The translations under genes and the position numbers were made by a program. From Deltaproteobacteria bacterium (GTDB lineage Bacteria; Desulfobacterota_D; UBA1144; Nemesobacterales; UBA2774), in assembly GCA_040223695.1 (NCBI GenBank), contig JAVKFU010000015.1, positions 632,692 through 696,691 on the forward strand: 64,000 nucleotides of DNA. The letters run 5' to 3'. Each line of letters opens with the position of its first letter. Position 1 is the first letter of the stretch. Positions 6,407-45,649 of this stretch are shown piece by piece. The notes under the pieces are model-generated. The model had not been told where the DNA came from and did no database searches. It saw only the letters and a program-made list of their open reading frames with translations.

Positions 6407-7177
6407 TTAACCGTCCCGAAACCAGTTAATGCTTTCTTCAATTTCAATGTGAAGACCCAGTACTTTTATTATGCTTGTTTGGTGTCGTAAATGCAAATAC
6501 GGTGGGCTGAGTTAACCTGACCAGATAAGGCAGAATTTTGGGGAAGATAGCGAAAAAGTAGTTGCTCCATTGTTTTTTAAGACTGGATTGCCGCGGTCGC
6601 ATAATTCGCTCTCTCGCAATGACGGTATTGGGGTTAGGCGGAGGAATAAAGAAGAAGGGATCGCCCTTCGATTGGACTCAGGACGAGCGGGTTTTTAAAT
6701 GCTCATAATTGGTAAATCCCCCTTAATTTGGCTTTAAATATTCGGTGCCGGGAGTCGATCAACGCATGTGCTATTAGCCAAGGGCATCCTGTTCCTCCGA
6801 TTTGTCGGAACCGTTCCCCTTTTTCTAAGGGGGTATTTATGATCTTCTCGGCGATTACTCCTGAAACAGCTCGTCGTCAGGGTATATAGGCGCGGGGACT
6901 TTGTTTTTTACAGGCCCGATAGCCTGAAGGTAGAGAAATATGGAACGTATCTCTTCATGGCTCAGCTGTGACTGAACGTTTTCAGGCTTGAGCGGGAAGA
7001 GCGCCCTCCCCTGCCTGCCCGTATAGTCCTGCTCATTGTGCAGAAAAGGCTTCTCCATGCCCGGTCATTCGTTTTTTAACCAGCAATATGGGCCGGTTTC
7101 CCCATTTATAAATTTTGAATATATAATTTCATATCAATCAGCTTTTTATCAACTACACCTTAGAAGGAGGAGAATCG

Positions 7178-9073
7178 ATGTTCAATCTCACATCTTTAGA
7201 CGTGCGCAAAAAGTTTATTTTAGCGCTCGTTGTACTGGCTTCACTATTCAGCGGCGCTGCTCTAACCTATGCACAGGATGCGGCGGGTCTGTTTGTAAGC
7301 AGCTTCGGCAACAACAGGGTAAACGAGTATAACGCGACCACCGGGAACTTCGTCGATATATTCGCCGAGGGAATCGTTAGCGGACTCGACGGTCCCTGGG
7401 GTATTGCATTCGGCCCTGACGGCAACCTGTATGTAAGCAGCTTCGCCACCGATGAGGTAATCCGGTATGACGGGGAAACGGGAGTTATGATTGACATATT
7501 CGTATCCCAGGGCTCGGGCGGACTGGACCAGCCCTTTACTCTCGTATTCGGTCCCGACGGCAACCTGTACGTCGTTAGCACCGGCACAGGACAGGTACTG
7601 AGCTACGACGGGGAAACCGGCGCTTTTCTGGATGTATTCGTAAACTCCGGAAGCGGGGGCCTTGACAACCCTTACGGTATAGTATTCGGTCCCGACGGCA
7701 ACGCTTACGTGACGAGTGCCATCTCAGACAGCGTGATACGCTATGACGGAGAAACCGGCGTTTTTATTGATGTTTTCGTTCCTGCCGGAAGCGGAGGGCT
7801 GGCTCTACCGAGCGGCCTCACGTTCGGTCCCGACGGGAATCTGTATGTTAACTCGCGGGGCGATAATTCAGTGCTCAGTTATGACGGAGAAACCGGCGTT
7901 TTTATCGATGTTTTCGTTCCTGCCGGGAGCGGAGGGCTAGATTCCGCCGAGAGCAACGCTTTCGGCCCCGACGGGAACCTCTATGTAAGCAGCCGGGGAA
8001 ATGATTCCGTGCTCCGGTACGACGGGGAAACGGGCGCGTTCCTGGACGCTTTCGTTCCGGAAAGCTCAGGCGGCCTCGACGACCCCTTCGGATTTGTTTT
8101 CGGACCCGATGAGGATCTCTATGTGACCAGTTTCGGAAGAGACCAGGTGCTTAAATATGACGGGGAAACGGGAGCTTTTATCGAAATTTTCGTTTCTCAA
8201 ACGAACATTGGTCTCGACCAGCCCGAGGGTCTCGTATTCGGTCCTGACGGGAACCTCTACGTAAGCAGCCGGGGCAGAGACGAGATACTCCGTTTTAACG
8301 GAAACACAGGTGCGCTGATAGACGAGTTCGTCCCTCCGGGGAGCGGCGGACTGGATAACCCGCGCTCGCTGGTTTTCGGTCCCGACGACAACCTGTACGT
8401 TGCCAGCTCCGGGAGCAATGAGATACTACGCTACGACGGCGTGACAGGAGCGTTTATCGACGCATTCGTAACCACAGGGAATGGCGGATTGGAAGACCCG
8501 TTCGGTCTCATATTCGGTTCGGACGGCAATTTATATGTAGCGAGCCGCGGGACAGACGAAGTATTAAGGTATAGCGGCCTGACGGGGGCGTTTATAGACG
8601 CTTTCGTTCCTGCTGGCAGCGGCGGGCTGGAGCGCTCCTGGGGACTTGATTTCGGACCCGATGGAGACCTTTACGTAACAAGCGTCGGCACCAATGAGGT
8701 GCTCCGGTATGACGGAGTGACGGGGGCGTTTATAGATGTATTCATAACCGCTGGCAGCGGCGGATTGAGTGGCGCTTTCTGCCTGCTGTTTAACCCCGAC
8801 GGCGACCTACTTGTATGCAGTTTCTTCACCAATGAGGTGCTGCTCTATAATGGCCAAACCGGGGCGTTTATTGACGCTTTCGTTAGTGCGGGCAGCGGCG
8901 GGCTGAACGGTCCGACCGGCATTGTCTTCAGAATAATCTCAAGCAACGGCAGCAGCGGCTGTTCCATTGCAGAGGCCGGAACGAAGGCATCATTTCCGCT
9001 CGTTCTTCTACTGGCTCCGATTTTATTCCTGATGTCGAGAAGGCTTATGCGTGTTAGCAGAAAAACTGTTTAA
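7178..9073 (+). CDS. NHL/SMP-30-like beta-propeller repeat protein, secreted, with C-terminal sorting-signal-like tail
   Basis: RBS aggagg lies upstream of the start. A signal peptide is present. About 13 tandem 43-aa repeats follow the pattern GPDGNLYVSS...VLRYDGETGAFIDVFV. The tail SSGCS...FPLVLLLAPILFLMSRRLMRVSRK ends the protein. Confidence 0.8.
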   Translation: MFNLTSLDVRKKFILALVVLASLFSGAALTYAQDAAGLFVSSFGNNRVNEYNATTGNFVDIFAEGIVSGLDGPWGIAFGPDGNLYVSSFATDEVIRYDGETGVMIDIFVSQGSGGLDQPFTLVFGPDGNLYVVSTGTGQVLSYDGETGAFLDVFVNSGSGGLDNPYGIVFGPDGNAYVTSAISDSVIRYDGETGVFIDVFVPAGSGGLALPSGLTFGPDGNLYVNSRGDNSVLSYDGETGVFIDVFVPAGSGGLDSAESNAFGPDGNLYVSSRGNDSVLRYDGETGAFLDAFVPESSGGLDDPFGFVFGPDEDLYVTSFGRDQVLKYDGETGAFIEIFVSQTNIGLDQPEGLVFGPDGNLYVSSRGRDEILRFNGNTGALIDEFVPPGSGGLDNPRSLVFGPDDNLYVASSGSNEILRYDGVTGAFIDAFVTTGNGGLEDPFGLIFGSDGNLYVASRGTDEVLRYSGLTGAFIDAFVPAGSGGLERSWGLDFGPDGDLYVTSVGTNEVLRYDGVTGAFIDVFITAGSGGLSGAFCLLFNPDGDLLVCSFFTNEVLLYNGQTGAFIDAFVSAGSGGLNGPTGIVFRIISSNGSSGCSIAEAGTKASFPLVLLLAPILFLMSRRLMRVSRKTV

Positions 9074-9474
9074 ATAATAACTATGGAGAGAGCTGGGGGC
9101 ATAGTAAGCCCCCTTCCTCTCTCCGCTTTTATACCAACCGTTTCAATCAATGACGGGTCGGAGTTTGTCCTGAGTTTATTATCGGGGTGAAAATGACATC
9201 CTTCGACCGGGGTCAGGATGAAGGGATTTGCGGGATTGCCGCAGCCATAAAAGAAGCCGCGCAATTACAGCTTTCACTCGTCATTGAGAGCAACGGGGGC
9301 TACCCCCCTCATTCCACTCACGTGCATGTACCTTGCATGGTCATGTCCCTTAATTTTATTATAGCAAAATAGTGAGATTATAGAGCTTAAAATAAAAAAC
9401 TTGAGAAAAAGGGTTAACAAGTTTAATATAATGCATTATAATTAGATTGATTTTCTCTTAAAGGAGGATGTACC

Positions 9475-10044
9475 ATGACGCGCCTTTTCCCTGCGGTTAC
9501 GGCACTCTTGCTAATATTTTCAGCATATGCGCCCGGGGCGCAAGCCCAGAATCCGGAGGGAGTAGGCGTCGTTGTGGATATACACTGGCCCTCCCAGCCG
9601 AACCACCTCCGCTATAACGTCGGGAACGGGGATGTAGTTACCGGGCGCTACGGTTATTACAGGCCGCCCGGTTATTATAATCTCCCGATTACGCACAGCG
9701 ACAACAACGTGCTTATCATAACCAAACCCATAAGCAAAGCGCGCACTTATATAATGTTCGAGGGTGTCAATATAGACCCCGAACTATTGAAGAAAAAGCT
9801 CGGCAGGCTCGAAGGGGTGATAATGGATGTGGGCACGGATGAATGGGCGCTGCAACTGGGAGACCAGGTACATATTACTACAGAGGACTTTTACGGGGCT
9901 ACGAAAGTAAACCTTACTTTCATACGGTGCGGCAGGTGGGAGCCGATTGCCGAATTTTCTTTCGTAAACCACCTAATACCGCCGCATACTCAACCCTCGG
10001 CTGAGGCGGCGCCTTATATTCCGTATATCTCGCAGATTGAGTGA
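9475..10044 (+). CDS. hypothetical secreted protein
   Basis: Cleavable signal peptide ending in AYAPGAQAQ. RBS aaaggagg lies upstream. Confidence 0.5.
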   Translation: MTRLFPAVTALLLIFSAYAPGAQAQNPEGVGVVVDIHWPSQPNHLRYNVGNGDVVTGRYGYYRPPGYYNLPITHSDNNVLIITKPISKARTYIMFEGVNIDPELLKKKLGRLEGVIMDVGTDEWALQLGDQVHITTEDFYGATKVNLTFIRCGRWEPIAEFSFVNHLIPPHTQPSAEAAPYIPYISQIE

Positions 10045-10199: not shown

Positions 10200-10700
10200 T
10201 TACTGTAAGACGCTTTCCGGCGGGGCCTCGGATTCGGCCGGCTCGTAATAAGGCGACTGCGGCTGCTGCAGAAGAATATTATCCGTCGGAAGGTCTTCCG
10301 CCGTATAGACTATATCCGCAACATCCGGCGGAACGCCCATTTCACCGTAGGAGACGAGCTTGCCGTCCCTTATCTCGGCTCTTATAGCGTATCCGCTTGT
10401 AAGCGCCTTCTCCTGAGCGTCCGTTACCTTGATTTCGTGCTCGATTCCGCTATCCACCTCGACGAGCCTGATCATGTCATCGCCGACTAGTGTAACGATG
10501 CCCGTAACACTGCCAGATGATTCGACATGCCCCGGCATAGCTTGCGGCTCGTGCATCCTAGAGTCGCTATTCTCCGCCGGCGCTTCCATCGCCTCATCGA
10601 AGCTCGGCTGTTCATAAGAACCCTTTTCCTCGGCATAGCCTGCGGAAGCGAGTCCCGTAACAGCTAAAAGCATTAATGTCGTCGTCAGTATCTTTTTCAT
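10200..10700 (-). CDS. hypothetical secreted protein
   Basis: Signal peptide, acidic sequence. RBS aggagg lies upstream on the minus strand. Confidence 0.5.
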   Translation of the reverse strand: MKKILTTTLMLLAVTGLASAGYAEEKGSYEQPSFDEAMEAPAENSDSRMHEPQAMPGHVESSGSVTGIVTLVGDDMIRLVEVDSGIEHEIKVTDAQEKALTSGYAIRAEIRDGKLVSYGEMGVPPDVADIVYTAEDLPTDNILLQQPQSPYYEPAESEAPPESVLQ

Positions 10701-25404: not shown

Positions 25405-27006
25405 ATGTCTTCAGAAATAGTCAGATACATAAACAAAAAAGACGCCGAACTGCTTCATGAAATAGAACTAGCAGCTAACCAATCAGATCACGACACAGCT
25501 CTAAGATTAACAGAAGACAGACTCGCTAAACCTATCGATTTGTCTCGGCCATCAGAAAGACTACTTAAAGGATCACTAGCCGGTTGGCTAATTGACATAG
25601 GGACTGAATCCGGACAGGAACAAATTGTTAAAAAAGGTCTTTCTATCTTGGAGAATGAGGAGGCGGTCCTTCGTAAAAATGTAACTCAAGCCAGCTATGA
25701 TTATAATATTGGAAACGCTTATAGTTCATTATTTGACCTTAAAAAAAGTAAACCTGGTTTCAAATTAAATCCATCCGAAATCCAAGACATCGTTAAGAGT
25801 AAATCTCGATATTGGAGAGCTTACAAATCCCTACAAACACACGATAGAGCGTTCTGGGCAAAGTTGTGGGTCAACCTTGGTAATTGTTTGTTAAAATGCA
25901 ACCGAGTTGTAGAAGCGATTATATACTATGATGATGTAATTACTGAATATCCGAAATTTCCACAGGCAAATGCAAGCAGGGCTGATGCCTTACTCAAATT
26001 AAATGAAATATCAGATACCTATTCAATCAATTTACTCGCTCAAGCGATTGAGGGGTATTCAGTAGCAAGCGATTTTGCAGATACATTGTACAATCGTCAA
26101 GCTTGGCATATGCGCTCAGAATTACTGAAACAAAAATTATTAGAACATGGATACGACAGCAAAAATATAGAACATGAAACTTCCGAAACTGAATCAGAAC
26201 ATAATCAGCACTCAAAATATCGTAAATTTTGCTTAGAACAACATCTATCCCTTTCTGAGCATTCTATTTACTGTGGATGCGCTGGAGCTAGAAGTGATGA
26301 TCTCACAGTACCTAAATCATCCGGGCCAATAGGAGGTAATTTTGTTCCTAGAATGGAGTTCATATTAAATCGAGTTAAGTCAGAGTTTACATTTGCTAGA
26401 TTGATGTATTACCAAGCAGTACTTCCTTTAGAATCCGAATGGGACCTCTTGGAAGATGAAATCCGAATAACACAACTATTTGAGGATGAGATGCATGGCC
26501 CTCGCTCTGAAATGCTACGTCTGAGTTTTCGAAATTGTTTTGCAATACTTGATAAAATTGCAATGGCAATTTGCGAATTATTCGAATTAGCTCAGCCTAA
26601 GGAAGTATTATATTTTGAGAGCTTCTGGCGATCCCGATGGGAACGTATAAACCAAATCGATAATCCGGCAATAGTTGCCCTATACGCACTCGCTACAGAT
26701 TTAAATAGCAAAACAGGAGATTGGCCTGAGTTTAAAGAATGGCGTAATGCAATTGAACACAGAATCTTTTGTGTTCTTCAAAAGGAAAATTTTCACTCTG
26801 ACCCCTATTCTGTAGTTAATCAAAATGCAGGGGACCTAGTCGTTCCGTTAGATGTATTCCATCAGCGCGCTTTATTTTTATTAAGATTGACCCGTTCCGC
26901 TATATTCAGCTTTGTATTTTGTGTACGTTATGAAGGTTCTAAACTTACCGAAGGTGATCCTAGCAAAGCAATTACGCTAAGAGGCCGCAATGAGGAAAGC
27001 GGATAA
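25405..27006 (+). CDS. TPR-like + C-terminal HEPN-domain protein (LA2681-like; predicted RNase/defence protein)
   Basis: The C-terminal region contains RNAIEH, matching the HEPN Rx4-6H (RNxxxH) motif. The N-terminal about 250 aa are helical and TPR-like. The gene lies in a markedly AT-rich segment. Confidence 0.5.
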   Translation: MSSEIVRYINKKDAELLHEIELAANQSDHDTALRLTEDRLAKPIDLSRPSERLLKGSLAGWLIDIGTESGQEQIVKKGLSILENEEAVLRKNVTQASYDYNIGNAYSSLFDLKKSKPGFKLNPSEIQDIVKSKSRYWRAYKSLQTHDRAFWAKLWVNLGNCLLKCNRVVEAIIYYDDVITEYPKFPQANASRADALLKLNEISDTYSINLLAQAIEGYSVASDFADTLYNRQAWHMRSELLKQKLLEHGYDSKNIEHETSETESEHNQHSKYRKFCLEQHLSLSEHSIYCGCAGARSDDLTVPKSSGPIGGNFVPRMEFILNRVKSEFTFARLMYYQAVLPLESEWDLLEDEIRITQLFEDEMHGPRSEMLRLSFRNCFAILDKIAMAICELFELAQPKEVLYFESFWRSRWERINQIDNPAIVALYALATDLNSKTGDWPEFKEWRNAIEHRIFCVLQKENFHSDPYSVVNQNAGDLVVPLDVFHQRALFLLRLTRSAIFSFVFCVRYEGSKLTEGDPSKAITLRGRNEESG

Positions 27007-30091: not shown

Positions 30092-33000
30092 TCAATTCAG
30101 TCTCTTCGCCCCCGCATCCTGTATCGCGCTCCTCAGTCTTCCGCCCTGCCGTATGCTCCTCACCAGCATGTTCTCTATCTCGGTCCCTATCGACGCCGCC
30201 GTAGCCCCCGAGCCTCCGTTCACGTTCACGTTGATATCCACATGCATCTCGCCTGAGCCTCCCTCGTCTCCGCCTATCCTCTCGACAAACCTGCTTAACA
30301 GTCCGTCCCCTGTGCCTATACTCTCACGGAACTGGTCCGCAAGCCCCGGCCCACTCGCCACAGCGCTCACGAACTGATTTATCAGCCCGGCCCTCAGCTG
30401 CACGAGCTGGTCCTCGGTCAGCACGGCCTCCCTTCCGTGCAGCACCGCAAGCGTCCCCCTGCCGAAGTCCCGTATCAACCCTCCCGTGCCCTCGGCGAAA
30501 CCCTGCACGTTCTGCAGCACCGACTCTATCGACCTCAGCACCACAAGCTGCTCGTCGTTTATACCCGCTATCGCCTGAAGTCCCTCGATCTCGTTATCGA
30601 ATCCGAACTCGCTCACTTCCTCGAGCTGCGCAAACCTCTCCTCCAGTATCCTTATATACTCCCCGCGTATGAACTCAAACAGCTCTATCAGCCTCTGCGA
30701 CGCCTGGAATGTATTCTGCGCCGTCTGCTCCCCTATGGCCGACAGCCTGTCCTGCAGCGCCTCTATCCGCGCGTCTATCCGCTCGATCTGCGCGTTCTGC
30801 TCCTGGGTCAGCCTCTCTATCTCGGCGTTTATCTCCTCTACTGACCGCCCCCTCGTCTCGGTCAGCTCCGCAAGCGCGTCGAGCCCTCCTGTTACCTGAT
30901 CGAATATAGCCACGAACTCGGGCGAATTCACTCCGAACGCGTCCCCGGCCACGTCGAACAGGGTTTTGAACGCGTCCTCGAGCCGGGCTACGATCTCGAC
31001 CTGCCTTTCGGGATCTACTGTACCGGCAAGCTCCTGCTGAAGCTGCGCAATATTCGACTGTAGCGCGTTTACCTGCTCCACTCCCGTGAGCACCGACTCC
31101 GGGCTGAACAGTATCGAGTCGAGCGTACGCCTTATGGATTCCGCAAGCGACGCGAACTCCTCCGCCAGCCTCAGCTCCTCGTTAAGCGCGTCTATACGCT
31201 CGTCAAACGCCTCCTGTATCCGCTCCTTCTCCTCGTTAAGCCCGTCTATTCTTCTCTCTATCGCCGCTCTTTGCGCCTCGGCAGCCCTTCGGGCCGCTTC
31301 CTGCCGCGCCTGAAAAGCCGCCTGCTCTTCGGCGAGCAATTGGTTCCCCAATCCCGCTAGGTCGTCCAGCAGCGCCTCCTGCTCCGAAAGCGACAGGTTC
31401 TCTATATTGTCCGTAAAGAAGCCCTGCACCTGCCCAATCGCCGTATTGAGGAACCCGGTCAGGTCCACTGAGCTTCCGCCGAATCCCGCGATAGTGCTGT
31501 TAAGCTGGCTTATCTTCCCAATCAGGCTCGATATGGAGCTTACGATTTCCGACGTCAGCGACAGTATCGCGTTTCTCAGCTCGACGTAGTTCTGCACCGT
31601 CTCCGGGTCAAGCTCTGCGTTCTTGATTAATTCCCCTAGCTCTTCCGTCAGTTGATCAATGGACGGCACGGCGTCGAATCCGAGCGTCCGGGAGAGCGAA
31701 TTTACGGAATTAATAGTCGTCCCTATCGCGTCATTTATATTCCCCTCTACTATGTTGAACGCATCGACAAAGGCGTTCAGATCGGCAAGCAGATCCTGCC
31801 CCACTGCCGCTCTCGCCTCCCTCGACCCTGCGCTCTCGAATTCCCGGAATCTCTCGTCGAGGAACGATGCCGCCGCATCGGGCAGTACCCCGAGCGACTC
31901 GAACATGGTCTGCAGGAATCCGTCCACCGCGAACAGGAACTTCGCCTGTATCTCCCCGTTTATAAGCTGATTGAATTTCTCCGCTATCTTCTTCCCCTTG
32001 GCGTCAAACTCGAAAAGCCTCTCCCCCGCGACTACCGTCTCCGTATCAAGCTCCGTATTCAGAAGCTCGTCCGTGAGCTTGTCCGCGAGGTCAGCCGGAA
32101 GCTTGTTGATAATATCCAGAAGGTTATTTACTGCCCCCTGTATCGCGTCGCCTAGAATCTCCTTTATCTTATCCGAGCCGCCAACGCCCAAACCGGCGCT
32201 TCGCTTTACGGATATGTCTATTATGTCGTTTATCAGGGTATCGGTGTCGAGCAGTTCGGATATAAACGCCGCCCTGCGCTCGCCTTCTTCTTTTATGCTG
32301 TCAAACTCTATGTCCAGACGAGGTGTCTTCTTGAATAAGCCGGATAGTAATGGGATGGCTAATGCCGCGGCAACGGCAACTGCACCGAGAATTGACAAAG
32401 CTCCACCTATCCCGCCAATACCTGCAAGAAATCCGGTTGATGGAAGCTCCCCGGCAGCTAAAGTCCCTACACTCACTCCACCGGTCAATCCTCCGACACC
32501 GAGACTTCCTGGCACAGCTGTAGCGGGTATTGTTGCAGCCGCTCCGCCTGCAAATCCAAATAGACCTGCAATTCCGGAACCGCCACCTAATATATCTCCA
32601 ATACTTCCGCCTATACCACCAACACCGCCAACAATATCTGCGCTTCCTCCAGCGCCTCTGGCACTTCCTGCCAACCCGAACAGTGCCCCAATACTTACCA
32701 CAATCTGCTTTGTGACAATCGCCGCAACAAGGTCGAGAAACGACCTGAGTATCGCCTCAAAAGCCTGCTTCACCAAGTCCTTTAAATCCTCAAACTTCCC
32801 GGTCAGCACGTTGAAAAATAAGTCGGAGAAATTCTGACTCATCTGGCTGAGTGTGTTAGCAAAGAAATCCGCTATGAGTTCACTATTCGACCCTACGGAT
32901 TCAACAAAATCCTCGAACCCCTGTTTTATTCCCTCAAAGAATCCGCCAGATTCATTCAGGTTTTCCACTCGCTCCGAAAACTCATCTAACCCCCCATCCG

Positions 33001-34027
33001 CCGCCGTTTGAGCCGCAGTATCTACACCCTCCACACTCGTGCTCATCGTGTCTATAGACTTGCTTGCTTGTCCGGTCTGGTCTATCACACCTTGAAGCCC
33101 GTCTTGACTTAGGTTGTTGGTAGATTCTGTAACATCCTCAGTAACACCGAGAAGTTCCCCCAACTCTTCTTTCGTATGCCCGAATATTACTGCCCCTTCC
33201 CCCGCGTTTTTAACTAAATCAACAAGAGATGTCGAAAATTCACCCTGCGCTGTAGTCCCTTCCTTCATCGCCGCAGACTGCTCCAAGGCCGATTCTCTAG
33301 CTTTATCGTATTGCAGACTAAGACCCTGTAATGTCAGACGGAGGGTCTTAAAACCCCTGTCTTGTTCATCAATTGCCCTTTGTAATTGCGTTGATACTGA
33401 TGGTCCAATAAATTCCTCTAAGCCACGACGTTGAAAATCCTCAACTTTTAGGTCAGGAATGTCAACCGTTAATTCAGGAATTTCTATACCCTCGATTTTA
33501 CCAAATTCTTCATTCAAATCACTCTGTAGCGCTTCTCTATATGCCTGCGCTAACTCTTCAATTGTTCTTCCTTTCGCAAGAAATTGTTCAAATTGTCTTT
33601 TAGCTATTTCTTGCAAATTACCTTCAATAGGTTCTGCTTTTTGGGGATTAACAAAAGGTCTTAGATCTACTGGCAAATCAACTATCACGCTTTCATTAGT
33701 GAACGGTTCCAGAATATCTTTAATAAGCAAGTTGATATTATGACCAATTTCCGCAGCCTGTTCACCACCAATCAACTTTGCAGCGTTCGTTAAAATATTT
33801 CCAAATGGAGAATTTGTTTTAAAAACTCTGTCAAATGCAGATTCCGCTTGTTTCATTGACGATTCAACATCTTTATTAAACTTGAAAAAAGTAGATTCTG
33901 ATGTTTTAGTAATAAACTCAAATCCGTCTCTAAATTCTTCGAATGTACTATTAGCTGTCTTTCCTAATTGTATTAATTGCTCATCTTCTACAATAAACTT
34001 GACCGTAATTTCATTTATCTCTGCCAT
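30092..34027 (-). CDS. giant helical protein, phage tail tape measure protein-like
   Basis: 1311 aa with no signal peptide. Long coiled-coil segments. A central Gly-rich hydrophobic block, GGIGGSIGDILGGGSGIAGLFGFAGGAAA...ALAIPLLSGLF, is typical of tape measure proteins. An AT-rich promoter region lies upstream. Confidence 0.5.
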   Translation of the reverse strand: MAEINEITVKFIVEDEQLIQLGKTANSTFEEFRDGFEFITKTSESTFFKFNKDVESSMKQAESAFDRVFKTNSPFGNILTNAAKLIGGEQAAEIGHNINLLIKDILEPFTNESVIVDLPVDLRPFVNPQKAEPIEGNLQEIAKRQFEQFLAKGRTIEELAQAYREALQSDLNEEFGKIEGIEIPELTVDIPDLKVEDFQRRGLEEFIGPSVSTQLQRAIDEQDRGFKTLRLTLQGLSLQYDKARESALEQSAAMKEGTTAQGEFSTSLVDLVKNAGEGAVIFGHTKEELGELLGVTEDVTESTNNLSQDGLQGVIDQTGQASKSIDTMSTSVEGVDTAAQTAADGGLDEFSERVENLNESGGFFEGIKQGFEDFVESVGSNSELIADFFANTLSQMSQNFSDLFFNVLTGKFEDLKDLVKQAFEAILRSFLDLVAAIVTKQIVVSIGALFGLAGSARGAGGSADIVGGVGGIGGSIGDILGGGSGIAGLFGFAGGAAATIPATAVPGSLGVGGLTGGVSVGTLAAGELPSTGFLAGIGGIGGALSILGAVAVAAALAIPLLSGLFKKTPRLDIEFDSIKEEGERRAAFISELLDTDTLINDIIDISVKRSAGLGVGGSDKIKEILGDAIQGAVNNLLDIINKLPADLADKLTDELLNTELDTETVVAGERLFEFDAKGKKIAEKFNQLINGEIQAKFLFAVDGFLQTMFESLGVLPDAAASFLDERFREFESAGSREARAAVGQDLLADLNAFVDAFNIVEGNINDAIGTTINSVNSLSRTLGFDAVPSIDQLTEELGELIKNAELDPETVQNYVELRNAILSLTSEIVSSISSLIGKISQLNSTIAGFGGSSVDLTGFLNTAIGQVQGFFTDNIENLSLSEQEALLDDLAGLGNQLLAEEQAAFQARQEAARRAAEAQRAAIERRIDGLNEEKERIQEAFDERIDALNEELRLAEEFASLAESIRRTLDSILFSPESVLTGVEQVNALQSNIAQLQQELAGTVDPERQVEIVARLEDAFKTLFDVAGDAFGVNSPEFVAIFDQVTGGLDALAELTETRGRSVEEINAEIERLTQEQNAQIERIDARIEALQDRLSAIGEQTAQNTFQASQRLIELFEFIRGEYIRILEERFAQLEEVSEFGFDNEIEGLQAIAGINDEQLVVLRSIESVLQNVQGFAEGTGGLIRDFGRGTLAVLHGREAVLTEDQLVQLRAGLINQFVSAVASGPGLADQFRESIGTGDGLLSRFVERIGGDEGGSGEMHVDINVNVNGGSGATAASIGTEIENMLVRSIRQGGRLRSAIQDAGAKRLN

Positions 34028-34217
34028 TTCCAGTACCTTGATTAACGTATCGACAAATTAATCTTTCACTATACGTTTACTTTATTCCTTAGATAGATTT
34101 ATAGGTGTTTGCTTGCAATCCCTCTATATTTAGAACCCTTTATTTATATTGTTGATTAATGGATACATATATGTAATTACTTAACTAGACTTCATATTCT
34201 TATTCTTTTATAATAGC

Positions 34218-34544
34218 GTGATGAAAGAAATCTGCTCCAATTGTCTTTACACCGGTGAGTCCGGTCATAGCGGAAGAAATGCTTGCAGGTTCCCTTTGGC
34301 GGGCCTGCTATTGGGAGTGGGTGTAAACGGTATTACAAGCGTAATACCGGATAGTGAAACTTCCGGTTCCACGCTCGTACTCGTAATAATTACTATTGCT
34401 TGTTTATTTACCGCCTTCTATTTACTTTACAGGTGTATCAATAAGAGCAGGAGAGCATGTCCCAAGTGTAACTATGGCGATATGATTGAGATGAATACCC
34501 CGGAAGCGGACAAACTAGTGGAGCAACATAGCCTGAAAAATTAG
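34218..34544 (+). CDS. split zinc-ribbon membrane protein, paralog 1 of 4
   Basis: N-terminal CSNC, two TM helices, C-terminal CPKCNYGDMIEMNTPEADKLVEQHSL. Confidence 0.55.
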   Translation: MMKEICSNCLYTGESGHSGRNACRFPLAGLLLGVGVNGITSVIPDSETSGSTLVLVIITIACLFTAFYLLYRCINKSRRACPKCNYGDMIEMNTPEADKLVEQHSLKN

Positions 34545-34566
34545 TTTTATATTCTCAAATACAAAC

Positions 34567-34914
34567 ATGCAAAAACTTTGCCCAGAATGTAACTATATTG
34601 GATACGAATCCCGTGGACAGAAATCACTTTTAATATGGGGAATAGCTTTAACTATTTGGGGAGCAATAACACTACTTGGCGCACTTATGCTTTATTCCTT
34701 TTCCGTTAGGATACTTGCGTCAGTAATTTGGCTCTCATTTGGTGTTGTTACCTTATATTACTACATTCATTACCCAAACATATGCCCAAACTGCAAGCAG
34801 AAAAAAACCATGATCCCTCTCGACACTCCCAAAGCCCAGGCCCTAATTAAAGATCACAACCTGACTATCCCGCAAGAAACATCACAACAGTCCAGCCCCA
34901 AAACCACTCAATAA
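34567..34914 (+). CDS. split zinc-ribbon membrane protein, paralog 2 of 4
   Basis: MQKLCPECNYIGY..., two TM helices, ...CPNCKQKKTMIPLDTPKAQALIKDHNLT. Confidence 0.55.
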   Translation: MQKLCPECNYIGYESRGQKSLLIWGIALTIWGAITLLGALMLYSFSVRILASVIWLSFGVVTLYYYIHYPNICPNCKQKKTMIPLDTPKAQALIKDHNLTIPQETSQQSSPKTTQ

Positions 34915-34959
34915 CCGAACATATCTACCATCCTTTTTTATCTGTCATTCTGAATGTAA

Positions 34960-35245
34960 ATTAGAAATCTCGTCTTTGTATTACCCTTCTCGACATTCAC
35001 GGAATTGGCGTTAAGAAAATAGAATATTGAGGCGTAAAAATCTTTCCGGGACGATTTCGAGCTAGCGAGGAATTGGACGCCCTTTCCTATAAGAAATAAT
35101 GTAATTAGTCTCGCTTCACTAAACCACGATTCTAATCAGGGTTGAATTAAAAGATTTTAGCCGAGATAGCCCATTTTTAGCCACATTCCGTGCAGTCGGT
35201 GATTTTTGCTTCTTTTCATCTAGGAAAAGAAGAAAGATGATTTAT
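34960..35245. repeat. modular composite intergenic repeat, copy 2 (full length)
   Basis: About 85% identical over about 280 bp to the 45.76-kb copy. Confidence 0.8.
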
Positions 35246-35655
35246 CTTTTTCCCGCCCAGCCTGAACCTTTCGAAGAATGTCATTTAGAGCGCAGCCGAG
35301 AAATCTATTCATTTATCCTTTAGAGTCTGTCATTCTGAACCCTGTCCTGAACTCGTTTCAGGATCATTTCAGAATCTCGATTTTCATCTTTCAATCCTTT
35401 AATTCCCTCCTTAGTAAAAGGAAACGAATGCGAACGTGTGAGCATTTAGACGCCTTTAGTTAAAAGCACTTATGCCCATTATCTACCGGCACATAAACTC
35501 TTGGAATAAAATAGGGTGGATTTAAAATACAATATAAAAACCTCACCTACGCCGCTAGCCTATACTCCACTTCCTCTACATTAACCTTATTATCATATAA
35601 CTGAACGACCACTCTCCCTTCATCCTCAAAATCCCAACTGTGTTATAATTTCCTG

Positions 35656-36030
35656 ATGCAAAAACTCTGCACCAATTGCAATTTCATCGGCAAAGGTAAG
35701 CACGGCCTCTTGTCCGGCAATATCTATGTCGGAATAATAGAAGTAGTTGTGGCGGTAATTATACTCTTTACAGGCCAGAAGCTCCTTCAGTCTTTTATAT
35801 ACGGAGCCGTGGTCGCGGCAATAGTAGCAATAGCCGGACTGATAAATATTATGGACTCGTTCTCGGAGGGCCGGCTCTGCCCTAACTGCGGCAAGGACAA
35901 GATGATCCCGCTCGACACTCCCAAAGCCCAGGTCCTCATCCAAGAACACAACCTCACAGTCGGCGATAATGTCCCCCAAAACACGCAGAATGACCAAAAA
36001 CCAGACCAGTTTGAAGCCCCCAAATCTTAA
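35656..36030 (+). CDS. split zinc-ribbon membrane protein, paralog 3 of 4
   Basis: MQKLCTNCNFIGKG..., two TM helices, ...CPNCGKDKMIPLDTPKAQVLIQEHNLT. Confidence 0.55.
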   Translation: MQKLCTNCNFIGKGKHGLLSGNIYVGIIEVVVAVIILFTGQKLLQSFIYGAVVAAIVAIAGLINIMDSFSEGRLCPNCGKDKMIPLDTPKAQVLIQEHNLTVGDNVPQNTQNDQKPDQFEAPKS

Positions 36031-36214
36031 ATCCATCTCTTAACTTCCATTCATAACCAACTATTATTCCAACATATTTATAGTAACACTGCAATACTTC
36101 GACCCACCTTTGCAACCACAGCGCCACAACCCCGCTTTTGTTTTTTTCATTCCCCCCCTTAGAAAAAGGGGATACAGGGGGATTTTTCCTATTTCTTATT
36201 CCCTAATGCCTTTT

Positions 36215-36395
36215 CCTTTCCCGACATTCACAGAATTGGCGTTAAGAAAACAGATTATCGAGGCGTGAAAATCTTTTAGGAATGGGGCTGAATTAACAGA
36301 TTTTAGCCGAGATGGTCTGTTTTTAGCCAAATTCTGTTAAGTCGATGATTTTTGCTTCTTTTTATCAAGAAAAAGAAGATATAATTTTTTGCTTT
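36215..36395. repeat. modular composite repeat, partial copy (modules B+D)
   Basis: Contains cccgacattcacagaattggcgttaagaaaacag...gatttttgcttctttttatcaagaaaaagaag. Confidence 0.7.
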
Positions 36396-36522
36396 TTTCC
36401 CTTGTCACTACATGTCGGGTAAAACCTCTCGGCAATCTCAAACCCCCCTTATCCTGAGCCCGGTCAAAGGATAAATACATGCCCCGCTTTCAATCCCTCA
36501 CCCATCCATTATCCTATCCCTG

Positions 36523-36930
36523 GTGAAAAAACTCTGCACAAACTGCTTCTACATCGGATACGAAGACAGGTCCACACACGGGAGCTTCAAGACCGAGTCC
36601 ATCCTCTGGGCGGTTGCCTTTGTCCTCGCATTCACGGGCGTTTTCGAGTCCGACCTATGGCTGCCGGCAACCATAACATTCGCACTCGCCTTTTTCTATA
36701 CTCTGACCATCTTCAGGGTAAAGATATGCGTCTGCCCAAGGTGCGGCCGCGACTCCATGATCCCGCTCAAAACCCCCAAGGCGGAGGCTATAATTCATGA
36801 GCACCACCTCGTGATGCCCAGCGAATTCAAAAATCCTGCGCGCACGATCTTCGGCCTCACATTCCGCGACGCGCTCCTCATCCTCACCACCATCCTTATA
36901 ACCGTCATGCTCTACAACCACTTCACCTAA
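36523..36930 (+). CDS. split zinc-ribbon membrane protein, paralog 4 of 4 (GTG start)
   Basis: VKKLCTNCFYIGY..., TM helices, ...CPRCGRDSMIPLKTPKAEAIIHEHHL. An extra C-terminal TM helix is present. Confidence 0.5.
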   Translation: MKKLCTNCFYIGYEDRSTHGSFKTESILWAVAFVLAFTGVFESDLWLPATITFALAFFYTLTIFRVKICVCPRCGRDSMIPLKTPKAEAIIHEHHLVMPSEFKNPARTIFGLTFRDALLILTTILITVMLYNHFT

Positions 36931-36939
36931 CTACTCATT

Positions 36940-37900
36940 CCCACTTAATCCTTTTTCTCCCTCTCTCTTGAGGGAGAGGGTAAGGGTGAGGGGGCACCTT
37001 CTGTTAAGTCGGCGATTTTTACTTCCTTTCATCAAGGAAAAGAAGATATAATTTTTTGACTTACCCTTGTCATTGCGAGCGCAGCGCGGCAATCCCAAAT
37101 CCGTCATGCTGAACTTGTTTCAGCATCTAACCCTTTGCCTTTCCCCTTCCGTCATTCTGAATTCATTTCAGAATCTAGAATTTTGCTTTTGCCTCCCTTT
37201 CACCCCTCCATAATCTCAAGAATCCTATTGACTCCATACCCCCAAATCATCTATAATAATTACGGAGGTAATTATGACAAGCGAGTGTGACAGCCCACCA
37301 GACAGGTTGGTCGAAAATTCGTGAGATCCGAAAATGGTGAGTACTTAAACAATCACCATAAATAATAGCTAAAACTAGCTATTGCTTAAAAAAAGCATAC
37401 AAACCAAAAAGGGAGCCACAGTGCTCCCTTTTCCATTTCTAGATATAGTAAACATTATTTGTCATTACAAACGAATGTGAGAAATCTAACCCTTGCTTTT
37501 TCTTCGTCATCGCAAACCGCAAAGTGGAACGACAACGTCGCATTATCGAAGTTTGTCATGCTGAACTACGATTTCGAGTAAGTAAGGAATCGGGTCCATT
37601 GACAAATTGCAACCGAGTAAGTATTCCCCTATCATGCCAGTCCAAACCCAAAACTTTCAGCATCTAGCCTTTCGTCTTGTCCATTCTGACATTCACATAA
37701 TTAGCGTCAAGAAAATCTTATGTTGATGCGTCAAAATGTTTTGGGCCGGGGCGGAATTAAAACATTTTAGCGTTAACATGAGATTTTTAGCAATATTATG
37801 TGCAGTCGGTGATTTTTGCTTCTTTTCATCTAGGAAAAGAAGAAAGTCTTTATCTTTTAGTCATTGCGAGTGGAGCATATTATGCGTAGCGCGGCAATCT
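36940..37900. repeat. about 1-kb non-coding cluster of stacked repeat units
   Basis: Contains the gagggagagggtaagggtgagggggc hairpin, a D-module end at 37.00-37.05 kb, gtcattgcgagcgcagcgcggcaatc, gtcatgctgaa, cattctgaattcatttcagaatc, a gtcatgctgaactacgatttcgag...gaggaatcgggtcc C-type unit, and a B+D composite at 37.69-37.87 kb. Confidence 0.75.
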
Positions 37901-37910
37901 AATCTTTTCA

Positions 37911-38240
37911 TTAAGAGCCAGCAATACCCCTACGGCGCCCGAGAGCCTCAATCCCTTCCCCCTTGGCGCCCCTTTTCATTTTCCTCTCCTGAGACTTCAG
38001 GGCAAACTCTCTGAACGCCTCATCCACGGCAATCACTACCCGAAACGCCCTCATCTTCGGATGCCCCTCGAACTCTAGCTTCTCCAGGTTATTCCATATC
38101 TCGGAATGCACCAGTGTGCCTACGGTCATCCCCTGCCCGTAGCGCTGAGACTGGCATAGCTCCCATAGAGATACCCACTCCCGCTGGTGCTGGGGGAGGT
38201 TCCGTATAAATCCTTCCGTCTCGTCCCCCGCCTTTTTCAA
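37911..38240 (-). CDS. downstream -1-frame ORF of a G/GT-like pair (candidate frameshift extension)
   Basis: Its frame is open upstream to about 38476, so it overlaps the last about 52 codons of the 38321..38890 ORF in the -1 frame. No conventional start or RBS of its own. Basic sequence. Confidence 0.4.
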   Translation of the reverse strand: MKKAGDETEGFIRNLPQHQREWVSLWELCQSQRYGQGMTVGTLVHSEIWNNLEKLEFEGHPKMRAFRVVIAVDEAFREFALKSQERKMKRGAKGEGIEALGRRRGIAGS

Positions 38241-38320
38241 TATGCGAAGCTCGTCCCTGTCGTTCTTTTCAAACTTGAGCCTGTTCTTCCGCCTGAGTTT
38301 CCTCTTTTCTTCGAGCTGAC

Positions 38321-38890
38321 TTACCCTGCGTCTGATTGAGTCTGCGCGGTACCTTCTTTTTTCCCCTTTGAAGCGGACTTCGAATCCCTCGTATATCCGC
38401 TCGAAGTACTCCCTGACTCTTCCAAAAAATTTTCCTCTTCTTTCTTCTCCTCCTTCGTGACCTTGCCGGCTATGAGCTCATAGCTCGACCTGAAGTTGCT
38501 AAGCAGGAAAGAGGACTTACAGAACTCATTGTAGAGCCATTCTTTAGTGTCCTTGTCGTATAGCACCCGCTCGCCCTTGTCGGTAAGCCCTGTAATGTCC
38601 TGTATGAGGTTATATACCAGGAACTTCGCGGCGCGCTTCGGGTCTCCTCCGAGAATCTTGAAGCTCCTGTCCTCGACAGTCAGGTCTTGCGTAAGGTCCC
38701 TTATCTGAGTAAGCCTCGCCACTGTCGGGTACGGACACTTGAACCCCACCTCGCGCCAGCCCTCGTCGTAACCCACCCACTCGCCTTTCTCGTCCTGGTA
38801 AGCGGGCCAGTCCTCATCCTCTATATCCCTGTAGGGATATATCGTCACATAATTTGATACATGTTTGGTCAAACTCTTAATTTCAGGCAT
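38321..38890 (-). CDS. acidic protein, phage tail assembly chaperone (gpG)-like candidate
   Basis: 189 aa, acidic (EDEDWPAYQDEKGEWVGYDEGW). Its 3' end holds T TTT TTG (about 38422-38428) and GGGGAAAAAAG (about 38355-38365), both inside the overlap with the downstream -1 ORF. Confidence 0.4.
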   Translation of the reverse strand: MPEIKSLTKHVSNYVTIYPYRDIEDEDWPAYQDEKGEWVGYDEGWREVGFKCPYPTVARLTQIRDLTQDLTVEDRSFKILGGDPKRAAKFLVYNLIQDITGLTDKGERVLYDKDTKEWLYNEFCKSSFLLSNFRSSYELIAGKVTKEEKKEEENFLEESGSTSSGYTRDSKSASKGKKEGTAQTQSDAG

Positions 38891-39130
38891 ATCCCCTCCT
38901 TTACACTATTGCACTATGTCATTCTGAACTTCGTCCTGAACTCGTTTTTCAGGATCTATTCAGAATCCAATCCCTTCCCGCTCATCCTGAGCCTAGTCGA
39001 AGGATGTCATTGAGTGGTTGCAAAGCAACAGCGGCAATCCCGTCTTTCTCTCGTCATTGCGAGCCGCAAAGCGGCGCGGCAATCTCGTCCTTTCCCCTCA
39101 ATCATTTAATCCCCTACCGGGAAAAGAAAA

Positions 39131-39178
39131 GCTAAAAAAGGGCTGTTAGCATTCATTTATTGAATATAAACAGCCCCT
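39131..39178 (-). terminator. rho-independent terminator after the 491-aa gene
   Basis: Minus-strand hairpin aggggctgtt-loop-aacagccct, followed by a TTTTTT run. Confidence 0.55.
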
Positions 39179-39190
39179 TAGCAATAATCC

Positions 39191-40666
39191 TTAAACAACG
39201 GCCTCAACCATATCCTCAACTGTTGGCTGGTTGTTCTTCACCGTAACTGTAATGTCCGTATTCGGCGCGCTGCTGGTATCAAGCCTGCCAAGGAAGCTCT
39301 TCTCATCCGTCACCGGGTCCTTCGAGCTCACGCCCGGATGCGGACTCCCCTCGAACTTGGCTTTGGGCACGCTCATTGTCACCTGATGGCTGTTGTCACC
39401 GATATAGGTCCATATAAAGTCGAGCTGCGTCTCTGTTCCCGCAACTGTCTTCTCAGCGAATTGCTGGCTTCCGTACTGATAAGTGAATGAGCCGCTTACA
39501 GATCCTTCCCCGGGGGTGATCGCGCCCTTGATCGGCGACCCTACGACGAAGTTACCCTGTATGGTATTCTCGATCACGAGACTCAGGTTTTCAAACTGGT
39601 TTGTGGTCTGCTCCACACTGTCCACCTGCACGCTCGATTCCCAATGTGCGTAAGGAATGTTTTCAATCGAGGCCGGAGTCCCGAATATGTTCTCTGACAG
39701 TATTTGAAATGCCTTCCCTACTACGTTCATATTGAGCTGCGGAAGGTCGGTCGGGTCCACGTTAAGAGTAAGATTGCTTACCTTGTTCCCCCTGATAAGC
39801 ATGAGCGATTCAATATCGGTAAACCTCAGAAGGAAACTGATACCCTCGGGAATGGTGGAGCCTCTATAAATCGTATGTGTGAAGGGTTTAATTACTTCAT
39901 CGCACGCCGCCCCGTTAGAGTGAGCCTTCCTGAGCCCGTTGGGATGAGCAGCCGAGTCCAGCGTAAGCTGCCCCGCAGCCGTGCTGCCTATCTTTACAAT
40001 CTCTGCGTCATTTCCCGTGCTTAACTGAGCAAACTCACCGGCTGCGAAACCAACTTCGGATGTCACTGATACCGTTGTATCTCCGGCGGAAGCCGCTGCC
40101 GACAAAGTCGTACTTGCCCCCGCTGTTGACGTTCCGACTGTGGTGTAATCACTATTCAAGGCGTGTAAGTAAAACAGCCCCACTGTCGCTATATCGAGCT
40201 CAACAGTCATATCCGCTCCTGTGTCATAGTTTCCCTCACGGAAGTTTGAAAGTACACGCGAGCCGGAGAGCGCCTGCGACCTCTGCAGATCTCTTCCGCC
40301 GGACGGTGTGAAGGACCTCACGTTACCTAGCTTGAACCAGTTATTAGCCGGGTCTACCTCAACCACAGCCTCCCCCGATTCATGCCTGTAGTTTATCTTT
40401 GTGTTCGCGTCGAGACTCACCGTCGTGCCAGACACGTAACCTGCATCCACCTTTACGAATTCCATATTGTTGTCGTTCCCGACCTTAAGAATATCCCCCG
40501 CCGCGATATTAGTATCGCTCGCTACCGTAACGCTAGTCGCTCCGGGGTTAACAGCTGCGGCAAGCGTAGTGGACGCTCCGCCCCCGACCGCGGCTGACGG
40601 CGTCACGCCGTTTACCTGTTCAATCTTGTACCAAATCTCCGCACTTGAGCCTGAAGCCTGTGCCAT
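39191..40666 (-). CDS. hypothetical structural protein with two tandem ~100-aa N-terminal domains; possible phage major tail protein
   Basis: 491 aa, no signal peptide. Thr/Ser/Ala-rich and beta-rich. An internal duplication is visible (ASTTLAAAV...TSVTVAS...AAGDILKVGND / ASTTLSAAASAGDTTVSVTSEVGFAAGEFAQLSTGND). The phage assignment rests on gene-order context only. Confidence 0.3.
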   Translation of the reverse strand: MAQASGSSAEIWYKIEQVNGVTPSAAVGGGASTTLAAAVNPGATSVTVASDTNIAAGDILKVGNDNNMEFVKVDAGYVSGTTVSLDANTKINYRHESGEAVVEVDPANNWFKLGNVRSFTPSGGRDLQRSQALSGSRVLSNFREGNYDTGADMTVELDIATVGLFYLHALNSDYTTVGTSTAGASTTLSAAASAGDTTVSVTSEVGFAAGEFAQLSTGNDAEIVKIGSTAAGQLTLDSAAHPNGLRKAHSNGAACDEVIKPFTHTIYRGSTIPEGISFLLRFTDIESLMLIRGNKVSNLTLNVDPTDLPQLNMNVVGKAFQILSENIFGTPASIENIPYAHWESSVQVDSVEQTTNQFENLSLVIENTIQGNFVVGSPIKGAITPGEGSVSGSFTYQYGSQQFAEKTVAGTETQLDFIWTYIGDNSHQVTMSVPKAKFEGSPHPGVSSKDPVTDEKSFLGRLDTSSAPNTDITVTVKNNQPTVEDMVEAVV

Positions 40667-40803
40667 ATTGTTCCACCTCCGGTTTTTATATAAAAAAGCC
40701 CGGAACGGCCTGAACCGCCCGGGCTTATATTTTTAATTTGTTATTAGTCATCCTGAATTTATTCAGGATCTAAACTTTTATGATCTAATCCGCTTTCATG
40801 AGA

Positions 40804-41931
40804 CTAGTAATTGATAATCTTCCCGTTCTCATCCCATCCTGTAGTCCTCTGATACTGGCTTTGAAAATCATTACGCCAACTGTCGTTCCACTTCCAGTCG
40901 CCGCTTTTTATCTTCCACGTGTTATAGTCCACACTGTTGTCAGCCGATTCGGCATCGAAAACTTCCAGCGCAGCTACACCGGGGTTAGCGCTCTGGAAAT
41001 AGTTATTTTGAATCTCATTATTCGAACTCTTCCATATGCCCAGATGAGTATGGCTCGTATCGTCTGTTGAAGGATACTTTTCAAGTATAAATTTATTATT
41101 GGTAATTCTAGAATTTCGCACATGATGATATATGGCCATTCCCCAGGAATTATCCTCGATCAGGTTTTTTTCGATATCCAGATTTTCTATCCAGGTTGAG
41201 CATTTCGAGCCGTTCATCTGAATCCCCCTGCCCCCGTGATTTCGTATTACGTTACCGCGAATAGCAACTCCGGAAATCCCCTTGCACTCGAAATCAGATA
41301 GATATATGCCGTGGCAGTGTTTGGGACTCGAGCCCCGCCAGTCCTTGTTGTAGCACTCCCCTTTTCCAGTCCCGTTCGACTCTATTATGTTATTTTCGAT
41401 TGTTATATTATCAGTCGATATGATCAGGATTCCCTGATACGTGTTTCGGTGAATTTTATTATTCCGTATGATATTATTGCCTTTGTAAAGCTTTACCCCG
41501 TCCCAGCCTTTCATTACTTCAAAACCCTGAAACACGATCCATTCGGCGTCGATCTCGACCCTGTCGCCTTCGCCCTTTCCCGGAACGATAATAGGCTTAT
41601 GTCCGGGGTAGGCTTCGATTGTAATCGGTCTCAGACGTGTCCCGCTGTTTTTGACAACAATTTTTCCGGTATAGACACCGCCTATTACCCTGATAATATC
41701 ACCCGGGACTGCTGAATCGACAGCTCCCTGTATGGTTGTGTAATCGCCGTTAGCGCCCGGCGCAACTATCTTCACAGATGGCAAGCGCGCACCTGCTGAT
41801 TCGACGCAATCAGCGCAGCTGGAAGGATCGGAGAGAGTGTAAACGCCTCCCACCACAGCCGGGGCCTGGTCGATAAAATATAGAGGTAAAATTGCAGTCA
41901 AGACAACTGACAGAATTGCCGTCGATTTCAT
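40804..41931 (-). CDS. secreted right-handed parallel beta-helix repeat protein (pectate-lyase-fold; possible depolymerase/tailspike-like)
   Basis: Signal peptide. Repeated NNxIxxN / GxxIxxN beta-helix coils: NNIIRNNKIHRN, ITIENNIIESNG, IRGNVIRNHGG. Confidence 0.6.
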   Translation of the reverse strand: MKSTAILSVVLTAILPLYFIDQAPAVVGGVYTLSDPSSCADCVESAGARLPSVKIVAPGANGDYTTIQGAVDSAVPGDIIRVIGGVYTGKIVVKNSGTRLRPITIEAYPGHKPIIVPGKGEGDRVEIDAEWIVFQGFEVMKGWDGVKLYKGNNIIRNNKIHRNTYQGILIISTDNITIENNIIESNGTGKGECYNKDWRGSSPKHCHGIYLSDFECKGISGVAIRGNVIRNHGGRGIQMNGSKCSTWIENLDIEKNLIEDNSWGMAIYHHVRNSRITNNKFILEKYPSTDDTSHTHLGIWKSSNNEIQNNYFQSANPGVAALEVFDAESADNSVDYNTWKIKSGDWKWNDSWRNDFQSQYQRTTGWDENGKIINY

Positions 41932-42204
41932 AATTTACCAGTTGGCTTCCAGACTTGGCGCTGGATAACCGTTTAATATTATAACTGCCAGACATAGTAA
42001 ATAGCTTTTTACGAATTTAATGCATCTTCCACCAGCCTCAGAACCCGACAAAGATTTTTATTTTCCCCTTCCTTTAACATTTTTTACCTTTTACGTTTTT
42101 AAAAATCATCCTGAATTCATTTCAGGATCTCGTCTTTTATAGATACATTCGCAATTTCCCGCCGGTTTCTAGAGCACAACGTCCGTCTATATAAAAATCG
42201 GCTA

Positions 42205-42906: not shown

Positions 42907-42950
42907 GGATTTCTTTTTTACCTCAATTCACCATTCATTCCGAATGTCCC

Positions 42951-44386: not shown

Positions 44387-44416
44387 TTAACAAAACTCCC
44401 TTAATCTATTGGGAAA

Positions 44417-45267: not shown

Positions 45268-45312
45268 TTTCAAAACACTAGCAGATATAATCTAGTAAGG
45301 AATAAAAAGGGC

Positions 45313-45358
45313 ACAAAAAAAACGGAGATGATGTTCTCAGTCTCCGTTCCTTTTGTTT
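45313..45358. terminator. bidirectional rho-independent terminator
   Basis: aaaaaaaa-AACGGAGA-tgatgttctcag-TCTCCGTT-ccttttgttt. An 8-bp stem is flanked by A8 on one side and a T-rich run on the other. Confidence 0.6.
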
Positions 45359-45443
45359 AAATCTTTGTGGGGCGTTGTTCGCCCATTGATATATAAATTA
45401 TACAAATTACACCACGCTGTCAACAACCTTTTTTAAGCTTCTT

Positions 45444-45644: not shown

Positions 45645-45649
45645 AATTC

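Follow-up and report, generated by a model that had tools for sequence, protein, structure and literature searches.

A putative cysteine-type C-terminal sorting signal on an exported twelve-blade NHL-type propeller protein

The gene at 7178..9073 (+) of a 64-kb stretch of contig JAVKFU010000015.1 (Deltaproteobacteria bacterium, assembly GCA_040223695.1; hereafter the window) raises two questions: how its product is anchored after export, and whether its repeats arose recently. It is an open reading frame (ORF) of 631 residues plus a stop codon, which, as an earlier note on this DNA stated, is present in the ORF list. The product is an exported twelve-blade NHL-type propeller protein, matched by the Pfam models NHL, Vgb_lyase and SGL, with a C-terminal tripartite tail. 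We propose, with evenly balanced confidence, that this tail may be a lineage-specific, divergent cysteine-type sorting signal of the MYXO-CTERM / JDVT-CTERM class. The propeller and its repeats, taken as a whole, are assigned with high confidence.

The C-terminal tail and its resemblance to cysteine-type signals

The tail consists of three segments. The first is a disordered Gly/Ser linker with the signature region (residues 588-605, SSNGSSGCSIAEAGTKAS; 8939..8992, +), where the predicted local distance difference test (pLDDT) is below 50 from residue 591 onward and a lone cysteine, Cys595 (codon 8960-8962), lies in the motif SSGCS. It is followed by a Leu-rich hydrophobic segment (residues 606-619, FPLVLLLAPILFLM; 8993..9034, +), defined from the sequence and a hydropathy scan with a best 15-residue window of 2.45; six of its 14 residues are leucines and two are prolines, Pro607 and Pro614. 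The last segment is a basic Arg/Lys cluster (residues 620-631, SRRLMRVSRKTV; 9035..9070, +), predicted to be cytoplasmic because of the positive-inside rule. Residues 588-631 thus read SSNGSSGCSIAEAGTKAS-FPLVLLLAPILFLM-SRRLMRVSRKTV, with Cys595 preceded by SSNGSSG. The C-terminal sequence had been quoted correctly in the earlier note, and the tail is given here as a profile seed, SSNGSSGCSIAEAGTKASFPLVLLLAPILFLMSRRLMRVSRKTV.

A search with the tail alone against 18,950 NCBIfam models returned only two matches, JDVT-CTERM (NF033191; 17.1 bits, E 0.004, cutoff 27) and MYXO-CTERM (TIGR03901.2; 15.3-16.3 bits, E 0.01-0.02, cutoff 20), both below their cutoffs. Each alignment opens with the Cys motif at profile position 2. 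A C-to-S variant lost both matches and the reversed tail gave none, while three segment-wise shuffles scored 0, 12.2 and 0 bits; removal of the basic cluster changed the scores little. Replacement of both prolines by alanine raised the MYXO-CTERM score to 22.9 bits, above the cutoff of 20, and introduction of a DP motif in silico raised the JDVT-CTERM score to 23.6 bits, still under 27. For comparison, the MYXO-CTERM score of the validated TraA tail is itself only 21.0 bits. Every control tail matched its own family, and JDVT-CTERM matched none of the nine other tails, namely TraA and eight controls that include six from homologs or related loci and the terminus of one MFS protein in the window. 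The MYXO-CTERM model gave 19.1 and 19.5 bits to clear GlyGly-CTERM and PEP-CTERM tails via the helix and Arg part alone, and is weakly specific at this score level.

These results bear on a serious, though somewhat improbable, alternative, in which the tail is an uncleaved plain membrane anchor that would hold a periplasmic propeller on the inner membrane, with the basic residues in the cytoplasm and the cysteine incidental. The sub-threshold scores and the comparable MYXO-CTERM scores of tails without the cysteine fit such an anchor. By contrast, the matches depend on the cysteine as well as on the native segment order, and both of them, out of all the models searched, are cysteine-type sorting signals. 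Moreover, with 14-17 residues and two prolines, the hydrophobic stretch is short for permanent anchoring.

The earlier note had recognized a sorting-tail architecture without the PEP tripeptide and suggested a substrate of an exosortase, archaeosortase or rhombosortase, that is, a signal of PEP-CTERM, PGF-CTERM or GlyGly-CTERM type. The tripartite layout and the missing tripeptide stand, and this generic layout speaks for such a substrate, as does the use of PEP-CTERM and GlyGly-CTERM tails by propeller homologs in other taxa. The proposed enzyme type does not stand, and we regard it as very improbable. A PEP motif is missing from the tail, and neither TIGR02595 nor a related model matched it at E up to 10; it has no GG motif and no TIGR03501 match; and it has no PGF motif, with no archaeal sorting model matched at E up to 10, whereas the homolog tails match their own models. 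The only models that do match are of cysteine type, whose enzymes are CPBP-family myxosortases (bioRxiv 10.1101/2023.06.07.544157; PMC11980579). In addition, neither an exosortase nor a rhomboid gene was found in the ~108 kb of sequence surveyed, which comprise the 64-kb window, 8.8 kb upstream of it and 35 kb on two other contigs of the same sample.

The described cysteine-type signals are each predicted to be cleaved by a CPBP-family, Rce1-like intramembrane protease (MrtX/C/P, MrtJ, MrtS or MrtA; Haft 2023, bioRxiv 10.1101/2023.06.07.544157), and cysteine-dependent cleavage of the TraA tail by MrtX has been reported (Guo, Haft and Wall 2025, PMC11980579). MYXO-CTERM signals have a helix without proline or charge and a frequent GCGC motif, and number 3-73 per proteome (bioRxiv 10.1101/2023.06.07.544157). 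With these signals (TIGR03901; myxosortase MrtX/MrtC/MrtP) the present tail shares a cysteine in a small-residue motif, a helix, an Arg cluster at the extreme C-terminus and a signal peptide on the same protein, and its spacing from cysteine to helix resembles that of the validated TraA tail (CGTTADATPAGSTTFLLLLAAG... versus CSIAEAGTKASFPLVLLLAP...). It differs in having a single cysteine instead of the frequent GCGC, in the two prolines within the helix, where MYXO-CTERM has none, and in a host that is apparently neither Myxococcota nor Bradymonadales.

JDVT-CTERM signals possess one cysteine and a near-invariant DP nine residues later, occur about once per genome in beta- and gammaproteobacteria, and are encoded directly beside mrtJ in 16 of 17 cases (bioRxiv 10.1101/2023.06.07.544157). 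The present tail resembles them (NF033191; MrtJ) in the single cysteine, in a Leu-rich helix after a proline-containing dipeptide and in its apparent rarity in the genome, and JDVT-CTERM is its best-scoring model. However, the DP is absent, with Ala at +9, Ser at +10 and the nearest proline in an FP at +11/+12, and no CPBP gene adjoins the propeller gene. As the tail scores below both model cutoffs and lacks the DP motif, an adjacent protease gene and a proline-free helix, we did not file it under either family and suggest only that it acts in a similar way. Judged from its sequence, it is best described as a putative cysteine-type tripartite signal between MYXO-CTERM and JDVT-CTERM, under both thresholds.

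By analogy with MYXO-CTERM, the helix of the tail would first hold the Sec-exported protein in the inner membrane, where Cys595 would be lipidated. A CPBP-family (Rce1-like) protease of the myxosortase type might then remove the helix, and the lipid-anchored propeller would be delivered to the cell surface.

Anchors of homologs and the search for relatives and an enzyme

Homologs of the protein carry type IX secretion system (T9SS), PEP-CTERM or GlyGly-CTERM tails, or other added domains, at the position that the tail occupies here. PEP-CTERM tails are found on P0024, P0043, P0051, P0070 and L024, and GlyGly-CTERM tails on L007-L012, L019, L020 and L025, among them the genes at L007 6915-9881, L008 6345-9257, L009 8264-11212, L011 8267-11230 and L012 8303-11206. 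Tails of Paraglaciecola homologs score 16.7-17.1 bits against TIGR03501 (cutoff 15.5), with L007 and L009 exceeding the cutoff. As the site after the last blade recurrently holds lineage-appropriate sorting signals, the prior for the present tail being one is raised; the homolog sequences support a post-propeller position that carries sorting signals, which also argues against a plain anchor. The genes located above, along with L019, L020 and L025, encode distant propeller relatives of ~970-990 residues from Paraglaciecola, an Acidiferrobacterales metagenome-assembled genome (MAG) and a Flavobacteriales MAG, whose GlyGly-CTERM-like tails consist of …SSGGGS, a helix and RRR.

Together with the sub-threshold scores, the weak specificity of the MYXO-CTERM model and the departures from both described signals, a series of negative searches weighs against a cysteine-type sorting signal and fits an uncleaved anchor. 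The ~108 kb surveyed yielded neither a gene for a CPBP, rhomboid or exosortase protein nor another Cys-type tail; in particular, the window and the 8.8 kb upstream hold no PF02517 protein. When the 45-residue tail was compared with 5.8 billion proteins by a word-indexed search, no candidate shared three 5-residue words with it. A phmmer search of 1.84 billion representatives gave one match, which is spurious and internal to a 2424-residue Calx-like repeat protein. The closest homolog in GTDB genomes (L004, 56 % identity) ends without any hydrophobic tail. The best match on JGI metagenome contigs reached 48 %, and the best in the protein collection 66 % over partial lengths, with a Cys-type tail in 0 of the top 120.

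The missing protease gene has a different meaning for each of the two described systems. A housekeeping enzyme of the MYXO type is not expected near its substrates, so the gap is uninformative for a MYXO-type model, and it counts against a two-gene arrangement of the JDVT type. The earlier note had proposed to tell a sorting signal from a simple membrane anchor by a shared tail and a sortase-like enzyme elsewhere in the genome; both came out negative across the ~108 kb only, which is too little sequence to decide.

The host, too, appears to lie outside the lineages with described cysteine-type systems, to judge from source names only (one tRNA-ligase cluster and the kinase homologs), and this likewise tells against the proposed signal. 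For the adjacent histidine kinase, the top named homologs belong to Thermodesulfobacteriota and Candidatus Dadabacteria MAGs. A 64 % homolog of this kinase lies in a different neighborhood, in which no propeller gene was found, and literature searches on the run accession SRR26209086 and on Dadabacteria in combination with sorting systems turned up nothing of relevance.

A bolder reading takes the tail as the first example of a fifth, lineage-specific cysteine-type signal, with a single Cys, a Gly/Ser-rich region, a short Leu/Pro helix and neither DP nor GCGC, belonging to a Thermodesulfobacteriota- or Dadabacteria-like uncultured host with its own, undescribed myxosortase subtype. We consider this unlikely; if true, a new phylum-level group would be added to those with Rce1-like sorting machinery. 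More generally, if the tail is processed as a cysteine-type signal, myxosortase-dependent anchoring would extend beyond Myxococcota, Bradymonadales, some beta- and gammaproteobacteria, Synergistetes and Thermococcales to an uncultured deltaproteobacterial or Dadabacteria-like group. The propeller family, which already swaps T9SS, PEP-CTERM and GlyGly-CTERM tails, would also gain a further type of anchor. The possible cysteine-type variant comes from a single sequence, and its description would then be useful for annotation, as current hidden Markov models miss the tail.

Propeller fold and age of the repeat array

The propeller body (residues 37-586; 7286..8935, +) has 48 β-strands that make up 12 four-stranded blades, as defined by the repeat registers and an AlphaFold2 model. 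Tandem Repeats Finder, a repeat finder and direct register analysis agree on a repeat period of 138 nucleotides (nt), or 46 residues, in place of the 129/130 nt given earlier, and 11 complete units span 7328-8845. The twelfth blade seems to be divided into an N-terminal piece (GLFVSSFGNNRVNE) and a C-terminal piece (YNGQ...GIVF), as the sequence and the strand order suggest. The prior identification of an NHL propeller with tandem repeats was borne out by the Pfam models NHL (PF01436; 52.9 bits, cutoff 20) and Vgb_lyase (88.5 bits, cutoff 50), besides SGL and related propeller models.

The AlphaFold2 model, built on a 30-sequence alignment, has a mean pLDDT of 87.3 and a predicted template-modeling score (pTM) of 0.59, and shows the 48 strands, an N-terminal helix and a disordered C-terminus. 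Structural similarity search using Foldseek gave the tandem double propellers LRP6, megalin and Pwp2 as the best PDB matches, and sequence relatives with solved structures include the NHL sensor domain of PknD (1RWI) and the NHL domain of TRIM71. The twelve NHL-type blades of 46 residues most likely form two six-bladed propellers; a single ring would be a less likely arrangement. No catalytic or ligand residues were identified in the propeller.

Like the regular bacterial NHL propellers (PknD 1RWI and the periplasmic ScyD/ScyE/ScyF-type proteins), the protein is exported and has a regular blade consensus, …YDGxTGxFIDxFVxxGSGGLxxPxGLxFGPDGNLYVxS…; the interchangeable C-terminal anchors on its homologs also recall ScyF, a PEP-CTERM protein. 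It differs from them in having twelve blades, not six, and in lying outside a scytonemin gene context, with no scytonemin genes found near the propeller gene. The ScyE_fam model (NF033206) exceeded its cutoff of 80 with 131.6 bits, a total over nine repeat stretches. As such a total is no sign of orthology, we did not assign the protein to the ScyD/ScyE family.

Are the repeats young? The earlier note had called adjacent units nearly identical and read them as very recent duplications with ongoing expansion or contraction. However, DNA identity between units is 50-70 % for all pairs but one. At third codon positions, identity is 0.33-0.52 for adjacent units and on average 0.40 across all pairs, so that synonymous sites are close to saturation. 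Moreover, the closest homolog, L004 from a gammaproteobacterial MAG, shares all 12 units and their order. Over the last 26 residues of the units, which are the more variable part, the same-position L004 unit is the best match, ties included, in 9 of 11 cases, with a mean of 0.62 on the diagonal and 0.50 off it. The same 12 collinear units and the position-wise matching of second halves indicate that the array predates the split of the two proteins. The blade consensus runs through 30 aligned homologs, which belong to a family of thousands of proteins in many phyla. On these sequence comparisons, we conclude that the blades form an ancient array with a stable number of units. L004 itself carries a 1-nt frameshift inside blade 8 (~1680-1700), either an assembly error or a sign of a pseudogene.

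The pair that departs from the rest is formed by units 4 and 5, which show the highest overall similarity (78 %). The first 60 nt of unit 4 (7742..7801, +) and of unit 5 (7880..7939, +) agree at 57 of 60 positions, and all three mismatches are synonymous; no other 60-nt window of the gene does better than 51/60. Given the mean identity of 0.63, the chance of such a tract is P ~8e-9 per pair, or ~5e-7 over 55 pairs. This is the repeated 60-mer whose copies had been placed at 7741 and 7871. The out-of-frame ORF 7743..7940, which is indeed in the ORF list, is a trivial consequence of the near-identical tract.

The tract and the overall similarity of units 4 and 5 are what favors an actively expanding and contracting, contingency-type array with these two units freshly duplicated. 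The remaining 78 nt of the two units are only 64 % identical, which is ordinary for the array, and their second halves match different units in L004, unit 4 fitting unit 4 best (69 %) and unit 5 fitting unit 5 best (65 %). As the second halves are distinct positional orthologs, they point to gene conversion between existing units rather than to a new duplication. The unchanged unit count in L004 and the same sequence in two assemblies likewise speak against an active array, and a closed propeller would structurally need a whole number of blades. We regard the contingency-type array as largely refuted and give it very little credence. Instead, 7742-7801 and 7880-7939 were probably homogenized by a short intragenic gene conversion. 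The similarity of the blades at the protein level would thus reflect a conserved ancient repeat plus one small conversion, which corrects the view of an unstable locus.

Gene boundaries, neighbors and other features of the window

A strong Shine-Dalgarno sequence, AGGAGG (7165..7170, +), was read 7 nt upstream of the ATG. The predicted Sec signal peptide (residues 1-32, MFNLTSLDVRKKFILALVVLASLFSGAALTYA; 7178..7273, +) has a basic n-region, a hydrophobic core and a TYA motif; cleavage is predicted after residue 32, ahead of QD, and residues 7-26 were modeled by AlphaFold as a helix outside the propeller. Downstream of the stop codon, RNA folding detected a hairpin followed by GCUUUUAU, a probable intrinsic terminator (9084..9132, +). 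With its U-run, it folds at -28.4 kcal/mol (z = -4.7), a stability equaled by 0 of 200 shuffles, and it was missed by a simple consensus scan. The upstream neighbor is a 67-residue ORF on the opposite strand. From this arrangement of the hairpin and the upstream neighbor, the propeller gene looks monocistronic.

Beyond the hairpin lie two small signal-peptide proteins, neither with a Pfam match: a secreted protein of 189 residues (9475-10044, +), which is the immediate downstream neighbor, and one of 166 residues (10200-10700, -). An identical propeller gene is present on the independent Logan assembly contig SRR26209086_351. The exact 631-residue product is recorded for the Logan contig and is absent from the clustered protein collection that holds its neighbors with NCBI accessions; in the deposited MAG, the gene may be annotated with a different start or uncalled.

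Further into the window, a minus-strand cluster at 30092-46000 (e.g. 39191-40666, 40804-41931, 30092-34027 and 42205-45109) is prophage-like or phage-tail-like. It holds a Phage_tube_2 protein of 491 residues and a β-helix Pel9A/NosD-like protein of 375 residues, in addition to a 1311-residue ORF with a weak Mu Gam-like match and four consecutive ORFs of ~235 residues without Pfam match. In the same-sample Logan assembly, a break falls at window position 29909, shortly ahead of the cluster, and the cluster itself is covered only in fragments. At 25405-27006 (+), a 533-residue protein has an LA2681-family HEPN domain and may be a defense or toxin-type gene.

In eukaryotic CAAX processing, ICMT acts after Rce1, and ICMT-like genes are common in bacteria. 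One of the same-sample contigs (L029 701-1207, -) encodes a 168-residue PEMT/ICMT-family membrane protein in an ECF-sigma / Metal_resist operon, with no link to the tail shown. The 8.8 kb upstream of the window (L003 16236-20609) encode a DNA photolyase, an RpoD-like sigma factor, a fasciclin-domain protein and a MerR/B12-binding (CarH-like) regulator, a possible light-response cluster.

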